From: Escherichia phage AV112
Length of the DNA stretch: 64,000 nucleotides
Reading direction: 5' to 3' (one strand)
Sequence record: OR352942.1
Shown here piece by piece: positions 7,322 through 38,264 of this stretch. Each line of letters begins with the position of its first letter. Position 1 is the stretch's first letter. Under the pieces are notes generated by a model, which did no database searches, was not told the origin of the DNA, and saw only the letters and a list, made by a program, of their open reading frames with translations. Made by a program: the position numbers and the translations under genes.

Positions 7322-7326
7322 AATCG

Positions 7327-13647: not shown

Positions 13648-13983
13648 TTAACCCCGGAGTTTATTGAGCTCTTCATAATCAATCCAGGATTCTAGCCCTG
13701 ACGGCAGGTCACATTCAATGTTCCACAGAAGCTCTTCGATGGCTTGTAGGCGATTATATTCTTCAACAGTAATAGTAACCATTGTTTCAGGCTTTTTAAC
13801 CATCATGTCATTCATCAGAATGTACAGGTCTTCACAAACAGCCGGGTCGTCCCATGTCCATATTTCAGCATCTCGAACTAATGAAGTCGGAATCGAATTT
13901 AAAACTTCAAGCTTAGTAGGAGCGTCAGGGCCGAGAAGAGTTGCTACAAATTTATACGCTCTGGCGAAATCAATATCATTCAT
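13648..13983 (-). CDS. hypothetical acidic protein
   Basis: 111-aa ORF. Confidence 0.4.
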   Translation of the reverse strand: MNDIDFARAYKFVATLLGPDAPTKLEVLNSIPTSLVRDAEIWTWDDPAVCEDLYILMNDMMVKKPETMVTITVEEYNRLQAIEELLWNIECDLPSGLESWIDYEELNKLRG

Positions 13984-14243
13984 TTAAAATATTCTCGCAG
14001 TTGGTCGAATCCACCAATGTGACTTCCGTCAGGAGCAAACACTTGAGGCATAGTCAATCCGACTTGTGATTCACGTCCAAGCTTAACCAGAAGCTCAGCA
14101 ATTTTCTCATCATCAAAAACACCTTTTTCTGGCATAACATTAATGAATTCGAATGGCTGTTTCTTAACAGTCAGTAATCGTTTCGCATTATCGCAATAAA
14201 TGCATTTATGAATAGTAGAGTCATACCCGTACACTTTAAACAT
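13980..14243 (-). CDS. nrdC: NrdC thioredoxin/glutaredoxin
   Basis: From the internal Met: MFKVYGYDSTIHKCIYCDNAKRLL...GGFDQLREYFK, CIYC redox motif; near-identical to T4 NrdC as recalled. Confidence 0.9.
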   Translation of the reverse strand: MFKVYGYDSTIHKCIYCDNAKRLLTVKKQPFEFINVMPEKGVFDDEKIAELLVKLGRESQVGLTMPQVFAPDGSHIGGFDQLREYFK

Positions 14244-14649
14244 TATTTTTCCTTTCATCGATTAAATATGCAACGCCAAATACAATACATGTAATAAAAC
14301 CTGTGATACAGATAGAAACCAACAACACTGTACCAAAGAACCAAATCAAGTTATCTTTAGTAGTTTGTTTGATATCCATCTCACGAATTTCTATAGCTAT
14401 TGTATCACCTTTATTCAGAAGCGTATAAAACGACGGTGATACATGCCTGTCAAAAACTCGACCTTGTTCATCTTTATAAACTGCAATAAATTCCAGTTTA
14501 GAATATTTTCCTGTAGATTGACCTGAAATTAATTCCACTACCTCCACAGGAATTACTTTAGTTTCCATGTAAGTATTCTGGCTGTTCCAAATGAATGGAA
14601 TGATGGCAAAAACTAAAGCTACAATAAAACAACGAAGGCTATATCTCAT
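14236..14649 (-). CDS. membrane protein
   Basis: 137 aa; hydrophobic N- and C-terminal segments. Confidence 0.45.
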   Translation of the reverse strand: MRYSLRCFIVALVFAIIPFIWNSQNTYMETKVIPVEVVELISGQSTGKYSKLEFIAVYKDEQGRVFDRHVSPSFYTLLNKGDTIAIEIREMDIKQTTKDNLIWFFGTVLLVSICITGFITCIVFGVAYLIDERKNNV

Positions 14650-14954
14650 TATAATGTTCTCTCAAATTTGTGGAAGCATTTACGGCATTTCAATTTCAAG
14701 TTATCAGTGGTCCAGTTAACCAGTTGGACTTGGATAGTTCCACATTCCGGGCATGGATGTTTTGCTGCCGATTTGGCAGCATTTTCACGTCGTTCAACCA
14801 TTTTCATTATTTCGTTCCATGCCGGAGGAACGAACTCTTCTTCACCGTGGATTTTATCTCGCTGAACAAATTCAATCTTTGAACTATCGTCAATAAACTT
14901 AACCAAGCTGTGATTAGTGCTCATGTCAATATCCTCTAAAAGACGTAGTTTCAT
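14649..14954 (-). CDS. zinc-ribbon protein
   Basis: 101 aa; CPECG ... CRKC paired-Cys motifs. Confidence 0.45.
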   Translation of the reverse strand: MKLRLLEDIDMSTNHSLVKFIDDSSKIEFVQRDKIHGEEEFVPPAWNEIMKMVERRENAAKSAAKHPCPECGTIQVQLVNWTTDNLKLKCRKCFHKFERTL

Positions 14955-15904
14955 TATAAAACCTCAATGGCATTTCGTAAACCATCCGCTTTTGCATTCA
15001 GAGCTTTTAATGATTTAGTTTGTTCTGCAATCTGGGCTTCAACTTCTTTCAGACGAGATTTGAGGTATTCGCGTTCTTCTCTTAAGTTATCAACTTTTTC
15101 TGCTTTAGGCTCTTTAATAGGCTTAGGTTTATACGTATTAGGGTTCTTCAGTTTAATTAGAATGCGTGAACTGTACAGCATTGAACCATTATCTTCGGTT
15201 TCGTCATACATTTCCACTACGTCCATCATCTCCACCATCGTGCAGAGTTTATAAGACAACGAACGAATAGTTTTGTTGTGCTTATTAATTTCTTTAGAGT
15301 TCATGGTGCCTAGATTACGCGAGTAGTAATAAGGAACCTGGATATCAACTGACAATGATGCGTTACCATTGCCAGTTGGTTTGAATACTGCAGTAACCCA
15401 ATCTTTAACATGAACTTTATTTGTACGGCCATCACCGCCAGTGAATAATTTACGAGAATGTTTAAAAAGCATATTCACTTGGTTATTGAATTCACAAGCA
15501 AATTTATCAGCAAATTTAGTTTCAGGAATGGTAGATAACCAATCAGCTAAATGAGTCTTTTTAACATCGTTAATAATAGTAAATTCAACCAAATCAGTTT
15601 TAGATGTCACAGATTTAATAAAGCTCGGCTTCATAAAGTTTTTAATGTTATCGCGAGCTACAGTAGAAGATAATAAACGAGAACGTTTGAACCATTGAAG
15701 CAGTGTCCCTAATGAATGAGAATACGCATTCTGAGTATCTTTACAGATATGATTTTCTTGGCCTGTGTATGTACCAAAATCGCGAAGAATACCGCTTACT
15801 ACAACTCGGTGTGGAACATCAAATCCTAATGAACCAGAAGCACGTTGGGCATGAACGTTAGCGATAAGACCTGCAAAATAATCAATGTAATGTGAACGTG
15901 TCAT
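14954..15904 (-). CDS. hypothetical early protein with C-terminal coiled coil
   Basis: 316 aa; heptad-like tail EEREYLKSRLKEVEAQIAEQTKSLKALNAKADGLRNAIEVL. Confidence 0.5.
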   Translation of the reverse strand: MTRSHYIDYFAGLIANVHAQRASGSLGFDVPHRVVVSGILRDFGTYTGQENHICKDTQNAYSHSLGTLLQWFKRSRLLSSTVARDNIKNFMKPSFIKSVTSKTDLVEFTIINDVKKTHLADWLSTIPETKFADKFACEFNNQVNMLFKHSRKLFTGGDGRTNKVHVKDWVTAVFKPTGNGNASLSVDIQVPYYYSRNLGTMNSKEINKHNKTIRSLSYKLCTMVEMMDVVEMYDETEDNGSMLYSSRILIKLKNPNTYKPKPIKEPKAEKVDNLREEREYLKSRLKEVEAQIAEQTKSLKALNAKADGLRNAIEVL

Positions 15905-15932
15905 AATATTTTCCTCTCGTTAAGATAGAAAG

Positions 15933-15961
15933 ATTATACTCCAACCGTCCTTGGTTGTAAA
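15933..15961 (-). promoter_or_regulatory. sigma70-like early promoter with spacer stem-loop
   Basis: Minus strand TTTACA-17 nt-TATAAT; spacer contains CAACC/GGTTG inverted repeat. Confidence 0.55.
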
Positions 15962-15966
15962 CTGAT

Positions 15967-16899
15967 TTATGATTTTAATGCATTCATTGCGTTAAAAAGT
16001 TTAGAGTACTGCAACTGGAGCTTGGTAACTACTTGTTGAGCATCACGAAGCTTAGCTTGTGCTTTGTCAAGTTCAACAGACAGTTGATCCACAGTGCCTT
16101 TGATTTGATTATAATAGTAATCTTCGGCAGGAAGAAGGCCGTTAGAGATTTCCAGTTTAGTCGTCGGTGTGCCGTTAAACATAACAGGTTGTGCTGAAGC
16201 TGCATTAATCTTACCGATAGTCGGGGCGACAATAATTGACGCTTCGAACGTTGCATTTTCCTTTTTAAGATTTTGATAGTATTCAGAGTCTTTGTGCCAC
16301 CATGGCGCAGGAACCTTTTTACCAATAGATACACGAGCCTGGATAGCGATATGGCCCTTATTCTTGATAACGTCGATAATATTAAGCTCACGAGAATAAA
16401 TTGCTTTAATCTGGTGAATATTATCACCTAACACTTCCAACGCTTGGTGGAATACACGAGCAACGTTATCATTCTTAGGTTTATACGTAAGAGTGAACTC
16501 GTTCTCACTGATAACCATGATTTCTAACTTATCGTAAGTATATTTCAAATGTTTCATGTTAATTGCTTGAGGACGAATACGAGAAGCAATGGCCATCAGA
16601 TTGTTAAGGTTATTCCGGAACTGCTTAGCGAAATATTGTCCTTCACCACCAATACAAAAATTACGAAGTTTCTGTTTGGCTAATAAACGGCTGAACTCAC
16701 CGTTTTTAATGAACTCTTTAACGGGTGTGTTAGTAACGCATTCAAATTGAGTAAACTTACGAGAAGTAATCCCATAATATGAACAGATTTCCTCAATCTC
16801 TTCAGGAGTCTTTACAGGCATACGGATAGGATTAGGACCTGGGGTATATGCGTTCGAGGTAAATTCTTTGATAAGTTCTCTACGTGTAATAGAAGCCAT
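15967..16899 (-). CDS. hypothetical early protein with C-terminal coiled coil
   Basis: 310 aa; C-terminal LSVELDKAQAKLRDAQQVVTKLQLQYSKLFNAMNALKS. Confidence 0.5.
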   Translation of the reverse strand: MASITRRELIKEFTSNAYTPGPNPIRMPVKTPEEIEEICSYYGITSRKFTQFECVTNTPVKEFIKNGEFSRLLAKQKLRNFCIGGEGQYFAKQFRNNLNNLMAIASRIRPQAINMKHLKYTYDKLEIMVISENEFTLTYKPKNDNVARVFHQALEVLGDNIHQIKAIYSRELNIIDVIKNKGHIAIQARVSIGKKVPAPWWHKDSEYYQNLKKENATFEASIIVAPTIGKINAASAQPVMFNGTPTTKLEISNGLLPAEDYYYNQIKGTVDQLSVELDKAQAKLRDAQQVVTKLQLQYSKLFNAMNALKS

Positions 16900-16925
16900 T
16901 TTATATTCCTCATGTTGAAAAATTT

Positions 16926-16954
16926 ATTATACTCCAACCATCCTTGGTTGTACA
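16926..16954 (-). promoter_or_regulatory. sigma70-like early promoter, same cassette type as 15933-15961
   Basis: Minus strand TGTACA-17 nt-TATAAT; spacer shares ccaaccatccttggttg with the neighbouring cassette. Confidence 0.5.
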
Positions 16955-17950
16955 TCATTCCTTAAGAAGTTTTACTACTTGAATAAGATTAGCTCGTTCT
17001 GTTTTATTTTTACCGTTTAAGCCTGCTAATCGTGAGATTTCATCGTCAGTCTGTTGAATAGTTACATTAAGTTCGTTAATCAAAGCTTCAAAGTATTTGA
17101 TTTGCTCAGCATGTTTTGATTCAAATTTCTGAACCGGAATAACGTCTTGGTTTAGTTCATCAATAAGGTCTTTAAGAGCATCTTCTTGATTGATATCATA
17201 TTCAACTTCTTTTATTTCTTCAACGAGCTCGTCTTTATATCTAACGTCTTTTAGTCCTGGTGCTGGTCCTGAAATCTCTTCTTTAAGAGTACAAACATAT
17301 CCAATACGGTATCCAATGCCGTCTCGCTTGATATCAACTTCGTCAATAAATCCACAATGTTTAAGACCAGAGCCGATTAAGTCAAAATATCCTTGACGAC
17401 GTCCTTCAAACGTTACACGAACTACTAAGACAGTTTTACCTGCAACCTTTTGAAGCTCACATTTATAAAAGTTTGTTGAACCTGAATAACGTGGATGAGT
17501 TTTAAAGTTCATCTGACGATCTAGGCCCATTTGTAAGCGTGCTGATACGGCCATAAAACGTGTTTGGTTCTCGTTAAGATGAGCAACAATCCATTTCAAA
17601 GGCATTTTACACTGTTCACGACCGAACAAATCAGTACGTCCTAGATTACGCAGGATGTTGTTAGAGTTAATCATCGACAGAACATTAAGTTTATTCAGCG
17701 CGCTGAAGATTCCATCAGCCATTGATTTTCCGTAACCTTTACACGCTTTAATAAGCGCTCGCGGTAGATTAGCATAGATTTCAGACGGCATATGAAAATC
17801 AAATTTACTAGTCAGTAATTGATGAACTTGGATAGCAATTTGCTCATAATTAAGTGCTCTGCGATCATTATGATCTTTAAACCACACTTTAATCTGTGAA
17901 GCACATAAACCGTTAATTTCATGTTTTACCGCATCAGATGTAATGCTCAT
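16955..17950 (-). CDS. hypothetical early protein with C-terminal coiled coil
   Basis: 331 aa; acidic coiled-coil tail. Confidence 0.5.
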   Translation of the reverse strand: MSITSDAVKHEINGLCASQIKVWFKDHNDRRALNYEQIAIQVHQLLTSKFDFHMPSEIYANLPRALIKACKGYGKSMADGIFSALNKLNVLSMINSNNILRNLGRTDLFGREQCKMPLKWIVAHLNENQTRFMAVSARLQMGLDRQMNFKTHPRYSGSTNFYKCELQKVAGKTVLVVRVTFEGRRQGYFDLIGSGLKHCGFIDEVDIKRDGIGYRIGYVCTLKEEISGPAPGLKDVRYKDELVEEIKEVEYDINQEDALKDLIDELNQDVIPVQKFESKHAEQIKYFEALINELNVTIQQTDDEISRLAGLNGKNKTERANLIQVVKLLKE

Positions 17951-18012
17951 ATCTATTTCCTCAGATTGAATTGGAACTCAAAACCATTATAACCCGTCCT
18001 TGGGTAAAGCGT

Positions 18013-18540
18013 TTATGCGTGAACCGTCTTTAAACGTTCTTCAAATTTCCGAAGAGTACTAATACGTTCTGCTTTCTGTTTTGTATAGTTTGCAATACGT
18101 TCTGAAGTGAGAGCGTATCGTTCGTTTACTGTTTCTTTCATGAAGTCAGGGATTTCACGAGAAGCTTTAATTTCATCAAACTTATCGAGTACTGCCTGGT
18201 CTTCAGCGATTAAATTTTCGTACATCTCGATATCTTTCTTGATGAAGTCGATATCTTCCTGGGTTACTTTGGATAAACGAGATGCTTTATCCTTTTTGTA
18301 TTGCTCGTTAGTTTCACGAGACCAGAATAATGTACGTTTTTTGTTAGTGTTTTTGTAGACTTCCACAATTCCAACTGAATCGATGATAGCAATCCAATTC
18401 CAGCGAGATTTGAAAATCTGACCTCCGTCCACGGTAATCTCGTTACCATAAGCAACATCATTAAAGAACTTGCTTTGTGCTTCAGATTTAAATTTACCGT
18501 CGTTATAATTTACCAGGTTGAAAATATCTTTAGCGTTCAT
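18013..18540 (-). CDS. hypothetical protein
   Basis: 175-aa ORF. Confidence 0.45.
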   Translation of the reverse strand: MNAKDIFNLVNYNDGKFKSEAQSKFFNDVAYGNEITVDGGQIFKSRWNWIAIIDSVGIVEVYKNTNKKRTLFWSRETNEQYKKDKASRLSKVTQEDIDFIKKDIEMYENLIAEDQAVLDKFDEIKASREIPDFMKETVNERYALTSERIANYTKQKAERISTLRKFEERLKTVHA

Positions 18541-18564: not shown

Positions 18565-18597
18565 TCTATAATAACACAACCATAGACCTTGTAAACA
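18565..18597 (-). promoter_or_regulatory. early promoter with inverted repeat around the -10
   Basis: Minus strand GTTTACA...TGTGTTATTATAG; plus-strand taggtctat...atagacct inverted repeat. Confidence 0.5.
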
Positions 18598-19024: not shown

Positions 19025-20026
19025 TTATTTCAGTAAAGTAACTTCAGAGATTTCCTCCCAACCATCTTTATCAGTTGAAATAAAATCTGCTACATAAAGA
19101 GCCGTACGTAATGATACATTGCGAAGACGAGATACATTAGCCTTCATCCAGGACAATGCTTTATACGTTTCTGCATCTGTCAGACCACGTTTCTGCATCA
19201 TGTCAGTAGATAATATTACATCTTCAACTCGAACCATAATCTCTTCATTAGAGTGTACTCCAAGGTCGAGATACACTGAACGAGATACTAAAGCTTGAAG
19301 GTGTGGGGCAAGTTTCGAACCGCGTTCTAACTCTTTATCGATATCAACGTTTGTAATGAAAACGATAGTACCTTCAAACTCAAATTCTTTATCAATACCC
19401 TTATCATCGAGATAAGATGACGCAGTGCTCCAACAAACTTTGCGTTTATCTCCAGTATCTAATGCTGCTTTAAGAAGGTTCAAGATGTCCATATCTGAGA
19501 ATACGTCAACGTCGTCGATTAAGAGAACGCTGTCTGCATCACGGTTGAGCCAAAGTTGTTCGTAAAGGCCAATACCGGAGATTTTACCATTAATGCTTTT
19601 GTATTTGATGAAACCATTATCATTAGCGTTATTAAGTGCTTTATCCAGAGAATACGTCTTACCAATACCGGCTGCACCTGAAATAATGAGTGAACGAATT
19701 TTGCCATCGATAATGCCATTCGTCATCATGTTCATTACTTTAAAGCGTTTGTTGATACGAGTTTTCATATCTTCAGTGCTTTCAACAACTGCAACTGGTG
19801 ACGTCTCAACTCCTTCCATTACGATGTCTGATTTGAAGACCCATACTCCACGTTCAGACCCATCAATCATAACGAAAATTTTACCATCACCTAAGTGGGA
19901 ACATTCAGGATTAAGCTTTGCTGGGAACCATGTCTTTGTGGCAACATAAGAACCAGAGATTTCGTTATTACGATAAATACCTTTTTTGATTTGAACGTTG
20001 AACATTTTATTCTCCAATTTACTCAT
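19025..20026 (-). CDS. P-loop NTPase (AAA-like ATPase)
   Basis: 333 aa; Walker A ISGAAGIGKTYS and Walker B VLLIDDVD. Confidence 0.6.
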   Translation of the reverse strand: MSKLENKMFNVQIKKGIYRNNEISGSYVATKTWFPAKLNPECSHLGDGKIFVMIDGSERGVWVFKSDIVMEGVETSPVAVVESTEDMKTRINKRFKVMNMMTNGIIDGKIRSLIISGAAGIGKTYSLDKALNNANDNGFIKYKSINGKISGIGLYEQLWLNRDADSVLLIDDVDVFSDMDILNLLKAALDTGDKRKVCWSTASSYLDDKGIDKEFEFEGTIVFITNVDIDKELERGSKLAPHLQALVSRSVYLDLGVHSNEEIMVRVEDVILSTDMMQKRGLTDAETYKALSWMKANVSRLRNVSLRTALYVADFISTDKDGWEEISEVTLLK

Positions 20027-37919: not shown

Positions 37920-37965
37920 AATGAGAGCATTATACTCTGCTCTCAAGAGTTTGTACACTTATTTG
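37920..37965 (-). promoter_or_regulatory. early promoter/stem-loop cassette, copy B of the 46-bp perfect direct repeat
   Basis: Identical to 7276-7321. Confidence 0.6.
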
Positions 37966-38240
37966 TACGAATTAATAATCTCTTCCATTTTATCCAGAAC
38001 ATGGATATCGATTATACGAGGAAGTGCCGAAAGATTAGAACCGTCGAAAGATTTAAGGTCTTCCAAAATAATATTTTCAATGGCCTTTAAAGCTTCCGCA
38101 GATTCTGATGCAGAATTAAATTCAGGAATTTCTCCAAAAAGACGTAAGAATGAACCAAAGTATTCTGCGGCGATTTCTTTAGCTTGTTCGATATCAGACT
38201 TAAACATTTTGTTTTCCTCATTTGTTGGTGGAGTAATCAT
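37959..38240 (-). CDS. hypothetical acidic protein
   Basis: 93-aa ORF. Confidence 0.4.
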   Translation of the reverse strand: MITPPTNEENKMFKSDIEQAKEIAAEYFGSFLRLFGEIPEFNSASESAEALKAIENIILEDLKSFDGSNLSALPRIIDIHVLDKMEEIINSYK

Positions 38241-38264
38241 ATCACCATCCTTGGCGTTTGTACA

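Follow-up and report, generated by a model that had tools for sequence, protein, structure and literature searches.

Three consecutive genes of Escherichia phage AV112 belong to the NrdC.3, NrdC.5 and NrdC.6 families of T-even phages and share a C-terminal heptad helix

INTRODUCTION

The phage T4 gene nrdC.5 is named as an early gene by Srikant et al. (2022; PMC9391042), who report that nrdC.5 on a plasmid enables a T4 deletion mutant to plate again on cells with dsr1, the gene of a SIR2-domain defence protein from ECOR17. The sensor of Dsr1 is reported to be a TPR domain that recognizes major capsid proteins (2026 preprint, PMC12803255). Anti-defence activity has also been assigned to nearby T4 genes, with nrdC.1 acting against Septu (HIDEN-SEQ preprint) and gp49.2 against OLD. 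T4 nrdC.3, nrdC.4, nrdC.5 and nrdC.6 were all non-essential in a transposon screen (supplement, bioRxiv 10.1101/2025.11.20.689424). Here we describe three consecutive genes of Escherichia phage AV112 (sequence record OR352942.1), referred to as g1, g2 and g3, that lie within positions 14954–17950 of a 64,000-nucleotide stretch of DNA, called the window below. The closest relatives of g1 and g3, T4 NrdC.3 and NrdC.4 and the NrdC.6 protein of T4-like phages (PF26897 and PF26899), are conserved hypothetical proteins with the same architecture and the same locus as the AV112 proteins.

Two other described systems bear on this locus. Promoter-early stem-loop (PeSL) cassettes occur in the hyperplastic regions of T4-like phages (Arbiol 2010, PMC2839356; Comeau 2014, PMC4122927). 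As in AV112, the PeSL is a repeated unit of ~60 nucleotides that contains a T4/PST-type early promoter, a Shine-Dalgarno sequence and a start codon, and that precedes consecutive accessory genes; the T4/PST consensus is TTTACW-N17-TAYWAT (PMC4122927). A functional analogue of what we propose for the AV112 genes is DSAD1, a small phage protein that inhibits the SIR2 protein DSR2 by binding the sensor region of the sirtuin (PMC11087589). The target of DSAD1 is DSR2, whereas that of T4 NrdC.5 is DSR1.

RESULTS AND DISCUSSION

Assignment of g1, g2 and g3 to T4 protein families

Over the 4 kb around the three genes, the sequence was 100% identical to that of Escherichia phage AV113, which is an RB69-like T-even phage of the genus Mosigvirus, and 96–98% identical to that of many relatives. 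Every gene of this stretch lies on the minus strand. An earlier note, made from the letters of this DNA alone, had called three open reading frames (ORFs) here; all three start with ATG and are annotated coding sequences in the 100% identical record OR352943, so that the calls stand. That note had assigned none of them to a known T4 function from sequence alone, and on this point BLASTP, Pfam and PHROG matches gave a different result.

The 316-amino-acid product of g1 (14954–15904, minus strand) was 56% identical to T4 NrdC.3 over its full length of 316 columns (BLASTP, E = 3e-119) and matched phrog_1435 (E = 7e-106), and its precomputed Pfam family, PF26897, was carried by all 33 homologue clusters of g1. 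The protein is the orthologue of T4 NrdC.3. The 310-amino-acid product of g2 (15967–16899, minus strand; phrog_2351) matched Pfam DUF7235 (PF23882) from profile position 1 to 307 with an E value of 1.3e-111 and 373 bits, against a cut-off of 30; T4 NrdC.5 scored 420 bits on the same model (E = 5e-126). Direct identity of g2 to T4 NrdC.5 was 24% over 308 amino acids (BLASTP), and the RB69 homologue of g2 carries the name NrdC.5. The 331-amino-acid product of g3 (16955–17950, minus strand; precomputed Pfam family PF26899) matched phrog_2257 (E = 7e-127) and the 295-amino-acid NrdC.6 of T4-like phages (32% identity over 305 amino acids, E = 3e-32), and a tblastn search with g3 matched T4 nrdC.6 and 741 phage records. 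From these data we conclude that all three ORFs are assignable to T4 families: g1 to NrdC.3, g2 to NrdC.5 and g3 to NrdC.6. The genes are thus members of known and mostly uncharacterized T4 families; they do not represent a novel type of system, but are of interest as a starting point for studies of anti-defence.

The likeness between g2 and T4 NrdC.5 extends beyond the full-length PF23882 match. Both genes lie between an NrdC.6-type and an NrdC.3/4-type gene downstream of nrdC.8, both products have a C-terminal heptad helix that ends in the shared sequence SKL-x-NA-x-NAL, and g2, like nrdC.5, is predicted to be early and non-essential. The two proteins differ in that g2 lacks an insertion of ~30 amino acids found in the T4 protein and has a different N-terminal extension.

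A protein comparison with the T4 nrdC region revealed no counterpart of NrdC.4 in AV112. As the phage has genes of the NrdC.6, NrdC.5 and NrdC.3 types without NrdC.4, naming the three genes by position as nrdC.3, nrdC.4 and nrdC.5 would be wrong, and we rejected that reading. T4, Bp7 (Dhakavirus) and Shigella phage SP18 (Gaprivervirus) also have the order NrdC.6, NrdC.5, NrdC.4 or NrdC.3 between nrdC.8 and nrdC.2; thus, the triad has been kept in several Tevenvirinae genera with E. coli and Shigella as hosts.

A different name is given to these genes in the AV113 record (OR352943), in which at least 10 consecutive ORFs, g1–g3 included, are labelled 'thioredoxin'. The label was rejected for g1, g2 and g3, which had no thioredoxin match in Pfam; it appears to have spread from the gene names nrdC.x. 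The sole thioredoxin/glutaredoxin of the nrdC region is the nrdC product of 87 to 92 amino acids.

C-terminal heptad helices of the three proteins

Heptad periodicity was assessed with an ad hoc score, not a standard predictor, in which hydrophobic a/d positions and polar surface positions were evaluated in 28-residue windows and compared with 1000 shuffles of the same protein. Residues 265–316 of g1 (z = 5.7) and 264–310 of g2 (z = 3.8) exceeded the 99% level of the null distribution, and none of 1000 shuffles scored as high in either case. For g3 the corresponding segment was residues 281–309 (z = 3.2; 5 of 1000 shuffles as high). Taking hydrophobic heptad periodicity over at least 28 residues of a predicted helix as the mark of a coiled coil, all three proteins contain one by this score, as the earlier note had predicted. 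The same score gave similar signals for T4 NrdC.3, NrdC.4 and NrdC.5 and for the 295-amino-acid NrdC.6, and no signal for the neighbouring nrdC.2-, nrdC.7-, nrdC.9- and nrdC.10-like products.

The C-terminal helix corresponds to positions 14957–15091 in g1 (residues ~272–316) and 15970–16128 in g2 (residues ~258–310), and the C-terminal helical region to 16958–17125 in g3 (residues ~276–331), all on the minus strand. The g3 tail is divided by a G-rich break (AGLNGKNK), which is followed by a short terminal helix-like stretch. AlphaFold2 predicted a single unbroken terminal helix for g1 (residues 275–315) with a predicted local distance difference test score (pLDDT) of ~75–85, and for g2 (residues 258–309) in a low-confidence model. 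The weak, sub-threshold database matches of the tails were all to coiled-coil families. This heptad pattern suggests that the proteins may form oligomers through the C-terminal helix.

Relationship between the protein bodies

The earlier note had described the N-terminal domains as dissimilar. At the level of pairwise comparison this description is correct, as BLASTP gave no match among g1, g2 and g3 (E > 1), but it does not hold for g1 and g2 when profiles are compared. NrdC.3 and NrdC.4 are paralogous (HHalign 98%, E = 9e-14). The NrdC.3/4 family, extended with two proteins from Klebsiella and Salmonella phages described below, matched the NrdC.5 family at 94–95% (E = 2e-7 to 2e-8), and NrdC.4 still matched the NrdC.5 family over 139 columns when the last 55 residues were removed (83%, E = 9e-6). 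An N-terminal motif, TR-x-E-[LY]-I-K-x-F, is common to g2 (TRRELIKEF) and NrdC.4 (TRNEYIKSF). In the AlphaFold2 models of both g1 and g2, moreover, initial helices are followed by three strands, a helix, two strands, the linker and the long helix; the g2 model was built from a shallow alignment, and with a pLDDT of 41.6 is unusable as a fold. As the profile matches, the common motif and the similar order of predicted elements point the same way, g1 and g2 are most simply viewed as paralogues that diverged along their whole length. We conclude that the bodies of g1 and g2 probably diverged from a common ancestor and are not unrelated modules grafted onto a stalk, and that the NrdC.3/4 and NrdC.5 lineages are probably paralogous over their whole length. 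Judged from sequence, the NrdC.6 family (g3) is weakly linked to the other two. The new findings here are modest, namely an architecture that the three proteins have in common and a probable shared ancestry of the NrdC.3/4 and NrdC.5 lineages.

Searches of Pfam, PDB sequences, NCBIfam, PADLOC and Foldseek brought up neither a known domain nor a relative of solved structure, and no fold match that was convincing. Foldseek comparison of the g1 model with the PDB returned nothing at E below 0.02. Against BFVD the first match was NrdC.3, followed by full-length matches with low template modelling (TM) scores of 0.17–0.26 and E values from 5e-5 to 1e-3. These low-TM matches were to proteins of 304–370 amino acids from distant T4-like phages: E5E4A2 of Acinetobacter phage Acj61, A0A023W506 of Serratia phage PS2, and E5EYP0 and E5EYP1, which have adjacent accession numbers and may be products of tandem genes. 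The architecture of the triad may therefore reach beyond the Tevenvirinae, and we regard these matches as leads only.

Conservation of the tails and distribution of the families

The proteins share a common build: a body of ~260 amino acids, a variable linker rich in proline and lysine in which indels cluster, and a C-terminal heptad helix of 30–50 amino acids. In each family the tail was better conserved than the body. Identity of g1 to T4 NrdC.3 was 71% in the tail and 54% in the body, that of g2 to T4 NrdC.5 was 39% and 25%, and that of g3 to NrdC.6 of other genera was 57–59% and 22–26%; the latter body values include T4-type NrdC.6. Among close homologues the g3 tail was nearly invariant. 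That the tails are more conserved than the bodies fits the idea, put forward in the earlier note, of a modular family with a variable head on a common stalk, as does the common build. The idea has to be qualified, as the g1 and g2 bodies align by profile; g3 alone stayed unlinked to them (56% at most). The note had also held that clear homology of all three proteins to T4 nrdC-region proteins of established function would speak against a modular family. Homology was found for all three and an established function for NrdC.5 only, the latter by genetics only.

The families differ in distribution. The g2 subtype was present in 132 phage records and was confined to Mosigvirus-type phages; when the g2 alignment was used for an exhaustive HMMER search against 1.84 billion representatives, only the 50%-identity cluster of g2 itself and one fragment were recovered. 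NrdC.4 was present in 554 phage records. A search for related loci in IMG/VR gave 8 loci with NrdC.8 and 3 with the DUF7235 alignment. A 324-amino-acid protein of Klebsiella phage JY1 (HHalign 85%) and gp52.4 of Salmonella phage S16 (19%) look like NrdC.3/4-type proteins and have heptad tails. Neighbouring 260-amino-acid proteins and ORFs of Acinetobacter phage AB-Navy1 were considered as family members and rejected, as they do not resemble the NrdC.3/4 type.

Two members of the triad are altered in other phages. In SP18 the NrdC.5-type gene is broken up into a pair of ORFs (locus L014, 4038–4550 and 4565–4942), the first of which matched the front of the family profile (E = 7e-39) and the second the back (E = 1e-31); from its sequence this gene is possibly a pseudogene. 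Reference T4 NrdC.6 (NC_000866; locus L001, 10067–10894) has 275 amino acids and lacks the C-terminal heptad helix, and two pieces are needed to align it by tblastn, whereas other T4 records and the HIDEN-SEQ T4 encode an NrdC.6 of ~296 amino acids with the helix. Either a frameshift or a sequencing difference would account for the short reference protein. The extreme divergence between genera, together with the split SP18 copy, is as expected for genes in an arms race.

These distributions bear on how the tails might be used. If the C-terminal helices of the three proteins formed a mixed, hetero-oligomeric coiled coil, the functional unit would be one complex with three heads. Tequatrovirus, Mosigvirus, Dhakavirus and Gaprivervirus each have one member of every lineage, with the gene order unchanged, as such a complex would predict, and all four protein families have a similar terminal motif, [RK]-x-x-L-x-x-[AV]-[LIMV]-x-[LAV]-[LI]-K. 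When the C-terminal helices alone were compared by HHalign they always scored above reversed-sequence controls, but the scores were marginal (best E = 9e-4), so that the similarity is statistically weak. Moreover, the heptad helix is missing from reference T4 NrdC.6, the SP18 NrdC.5-like gene is split, and T4-like phages of Klebsiella and Salmonella have only the NrdC.3/4-type member. Plasmid-borne T4 nrdC.5 by itself also rescued the T4 mutant, although the excerpted text does not state whether that phage had kept the other paralogues (PMC9391042). We therefore consider co-assembly of the three proteins to be distinctly improbable.

Candidate role of the triad in counteracting host defence

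We propose that the three genes encode early, oligomeric, stoichiometric protein inhibitors of host immunity, a reading to which we give an even chance. The proteins would be made in the first minutes of infection, each gene being transcribed from a promoter of its own and also by read-through that starts at the nrdC.8 promoter, and would bind host immunity proteins and inhibit them stoichiometrically. The variable body would recognize the target, while the C-terminal helix would oligomerize each protein and thereby raise its avidity or suit it to a target that is itself oligomeric. For g2, the analogy with T4 NrdC.5 makes a Dsr1-like SIR2 NADase the likeliest class of target, and g2 is accordingly named here as a candidate for neutralizing Dsr1-like defence; at 24% identity its specificity may differ. 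Protection against defence systems had been raised as a possibility for these genes before, and it matches the published action of T4 NrdC.5 on Dsr1 (PMC9391042); for g1 and g3, such a function is proposed by extension.

Several observations weigh against this proposal. The main text of the HIDEN-SEQ preprint names nrdC.1, and not the triad genes, as a new anti-defence factor. NrdC.5 is the sole family here with a known function, which was demonstrated genetically only, and direct binding by T4 NrdC.5 is assumed. With g2 only 24% identical to T4 NrdC.5, anti-Dsr1 activity is not transferable with confidence. The structure models are weak, with a pLDDT of 41.6 for g2 and 61.2 for g1. The g3 body gave at most 7% by HHalign against the other families when bodies alone were compared; against the extended family the probability was 14% in one direction and 56% in the other. 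The oligomeric state of g1–g3 is a prediction from the heptad pattern.

Many T4 early genes alter host processes. The triad proteins might likewise serve in host takeover or as housekeeping accessory proteins, for example as scaffolds that dock on a host machine via the coiled coil, in which case the anti-Dsr1 effect would be indirect. That no domain or fold points to an inhibitor is compatible with this explanation, as is the purely genetic nature of the Dsr1 result (PMC9391042). However, the genes are dispensable in the laboratory host, they vary to an extreme degree between genera, and they are located among genes with demonstrated anti-defence activity; furthermore, the T4 nrdC.5 phenotype described in that study is specific to defence. 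On balance we regard an accessory role of this kind as unlikely.

DSAD1 gave no indication of a relationship with DUF7235. When the DUF7235 alignment profile was searched against PDB chains, among which the DSR2–DSAD1 complexes are assumed to be present, no DSAD1 chain was found at E values up to 5. The search returned weak, sub-threshold matches only (E of 0.5 or worse), two of them to a BAP31 coiled-coil domain, one to a hemagglutinin and one to a haloacid dehalogenase-like hydrolase.

The proposal that the triad proteins inhibit host immunity has several implications. With gp49.2 counteracting OLD, NrdC.1 counteracting Septu and NrdC.5 counteracting Dsr1, this part of T-even genomes begins to look like an anti-defence island. 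NrdC.3/4 and NrdC.6 become candidate inhibitors of other defence systems if they are related to NrdC.5 by descent as well as similar to it in build. The Mosigvirus NrdC.5 variant, with 24% identity to the T4 protein, provides a natural test of how specificity evolves, and the coiled-coil tail is a concrete experimental handle. The question also has a bearing on the choice and engineering of T4-like therapy phages against E. coli strains with different defence repertoires. In its boldest form, NrdC.3/4, NrdC.5 and NrdC.6 would constitute one T-even-specific superfamily of coiled-coil-tethered immune-sensor inhibitors, each paralogue being tuned to a different defence protein (e.g. another member of the TPR-sensor group that includes Dsr1 and Avs7). 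Its members would assemble into homo- or mixed oligomers, and the genes would form a recombination-ready array in which heads are swapped via the repeated cassettes. We consider this extended version doubtful.

Promoter cassettes upstream of g1, g2 and g3

The earlier note had reported a TTTACA-N17-TATAAT cassette before each gene. This sequence is exact for g1 (15961–15933, minus strand), and is of the T4/PST type. The g2 cassette (16954–16926, minus strand) has one mismatch in the −35 element (TGTACA-N17-TATAAT) and abuts the g3 stop codon (16955–16957). The description does not apply to g3, which is preceded by a shortened copy with an 11-nucleotide spacer, TTTACC-N11-TATAAT (18008–17986, minus strand), which was absent from the output of the promoter scan of the region. 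Judged from its spacing, the g3 cassette does not fit a normal sigma-70 promoter, and only the g1 and g2 cassettes are predicted to be canonical. The g1 and g2 cassettes are separated from the start codon downstream by 26–28 nucleotides, which include a Shine-Dalgarno sequence (GAGG), and the range for all three sites is 26–35 nucleotides. A predicted promoter of nrdC.8, TTTACA-N16-TATTAT, is located at 18595–18568 on the minus strand.

The number of promoter-like matches in the region was at the level of chance (18, compared with 20.1 ± 4.5 in shuffles). The g1–g3 cassettes are credible because of their placement, their common spacer core and their conservation in other genera, and not because of the match count. 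In a scan of the 64-kb window, the spacer core CCAAGGAYGGKT occurred with 0 mismatches at these three sites only. T4, Dhakavirus and Gaprivervirus have homologous cassettes both before their NrdC.3/4-type genes and downstream of nrdC.8, and cassettes like that of g1 precede NrdC.4 in Dhakavirus and Gaprivervirus. The short form, TTTATA-CCAAGGATGG-TATAAT, with an extended −10 element (TGG-TATAAT), is kept downstream of nrdC.8 in T4, Dhakavirus and Gaprivervirus.

Compared with the PeSL consensus, the promoter matched exactly for g1 and with one −35 mismatch for g2, while that of g3 deviates in its spacing. The g3 copy thereby resembles the 'degraded', mis-spaced copy described for PST/T4 (PMC4122927). 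The AV112 cassettes differ from PeSLs in the stem-loop, which in PeSLs is a terminator situated just upstream of the promoter. Nothing of this kind precedes the −35 elements of AV112, whose covarying hairpin is inside the spacer. From 18540 to 14954 the region scan detected nothing terminator-like on the minus strand, and the stop codons lie 0–5 nucleotides from the −35 elements. As no terminator was seen and the g3 stop codon abuts the g2 −35 element, read-through from the nrdC.8 promoter is likely, and may be the main source of g3 mRNA.

This close packing raises the possibility that the genes are unrelated and that the likeness of their 3' ends arose by convergence or from a constraint on the DNA, the ends being kept by a promoter or UP-element of the next gene that overlaps the last codons. 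Besides the g3 stop codon abutting the g2 −35 element, the g2 stop codon lies 5 nucleotides from the g1 −35 element, a TTTACG-N17-TATAAT match falls within the last g1 codons, and HHalign support for a link between g3 and the others is weak. The heptads, however, span 30–50 residues, far beyond the promoter-proximal stretch. NrdC.3 has the same type of tail with no intergenic promoter after it, and g1 and g2 can be aligned in their bodies, beyond the tail. This explanation is very improbable in our judgement, and we retain the interpretation that the tails belong to a shared protein architecture.

The TTTACG-N17-TATAAT match is at 14953–14981 on the minus strand, and its −10 element overlaps the junction of the g1 stop codon and the nrdC.2 start codon (TATAATG). 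Because of this overlap, a transcript from the site would start inside nrdC.2. The site could have arisen by chance, or could serve as an internal promoter of the genes that follow.

Hairpins within the promoter spacers

A hairpin with the general sequence NNNCC-AAGGAY-GGNNN lies inside the −35/−10 spacer. In the g1 cassette it is CAACC-AAGGAC-GGTTG (15942–15957; −6.2 kcal/mol, z = −2.9), in the g2 cassette it occupies 16935–16950 (−6.9 kcal/mol), and in the shortened g3 copy it is ACCC-AAGGAC-GGGT (17992–18005). The element was also observed in T4 (L001) upstream of nrdC.3, nrdC.4 and nrdC.7, and in loci L006, L007, L014 and L015. RNA folding energies of the spacer hairpins ranged from −4.9 to −8.2 kcal/mol. 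The stems covary, the pairs being CAACC/GGTTG, CATCC/GGATG, AGCC/GGCT, CCACA/TGTGG, TATACC/GGTATA and ACCC/GGGT. In an analysis of 9 copies, for which motif and structure had been chosen by eye from the same sequences, 93% of cells were paired compared with 62% in shuffles, and 12 cells had double changes compared with 4.9; none of 500 shuffles reached either value. The hairpin is possibly a DNA recombination signal, or a processing or structure element in read-through RNA. We take the loop AAGGAU and the GGAG that follows it to resemble RegB-type cleavage sites.

Related cassettes were observed elsewhere in the window. A fourth CCAAGGATGG cassette, TGTACA-AACGCCAAGGATGGTGA-TATGAT, is located at ~38210–38260 on the minus strand, upstream of a small ORF within 37959–38240 that does not belong to the coiled-coil family. 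A second repeated cassette, with −35 elements that start at 7323 and 37957 (minus strand), has an identical 17-nucleotide spacer, AACTCTTGAGAGCAGAG, in both copies, with a 5-bp hairpin (ACTCT/AGAGT). Spacer hairpins of at least 5 bp were found in 4 of the 16 T4-type early promoter matches of the window, namely those at 7323 and 37957 and those of g1 and g2.

Neighbouring genes

The triad is flanked upstream by an orthologue of NrdC.8 (18013–18540, 82% identical to the T4 protein) and downstream by an orthologue of NrdC.2 (14649–14954, 52%), the ATG of which overlaps the g1 stop codon; these genes and those that follow are all on the minus strand. The nrdC thioredoxin gene is at 13980–14258. 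Between it and nrdC.2, in the place that nrdC.1 has in T4, is a gene for an NrdC.7-like predicted membrane protein (14236–14649, 39% identical to T4 NrdC.7), whereas in T4 the place of nrdC.7 is between nrdC.8 and nrdC.6. Of the ORFs from nrdC to nrdC.10 that were compared, none corresponded to T4 nrdC.1. An NrdC.10-like P-loop nucleoside triphosphatase is encoded at 19025–20026, with the Walker A sequence GAAGIGKT and weak Pfam matches to AAA and STAND families. This protein is far more widespread than its neighbours, being present in 1311 phage records that include T4-like phages of Vibrio, Aeromonas and Acinetobacter as well as the jumbo phages RaK2 and 121Q.

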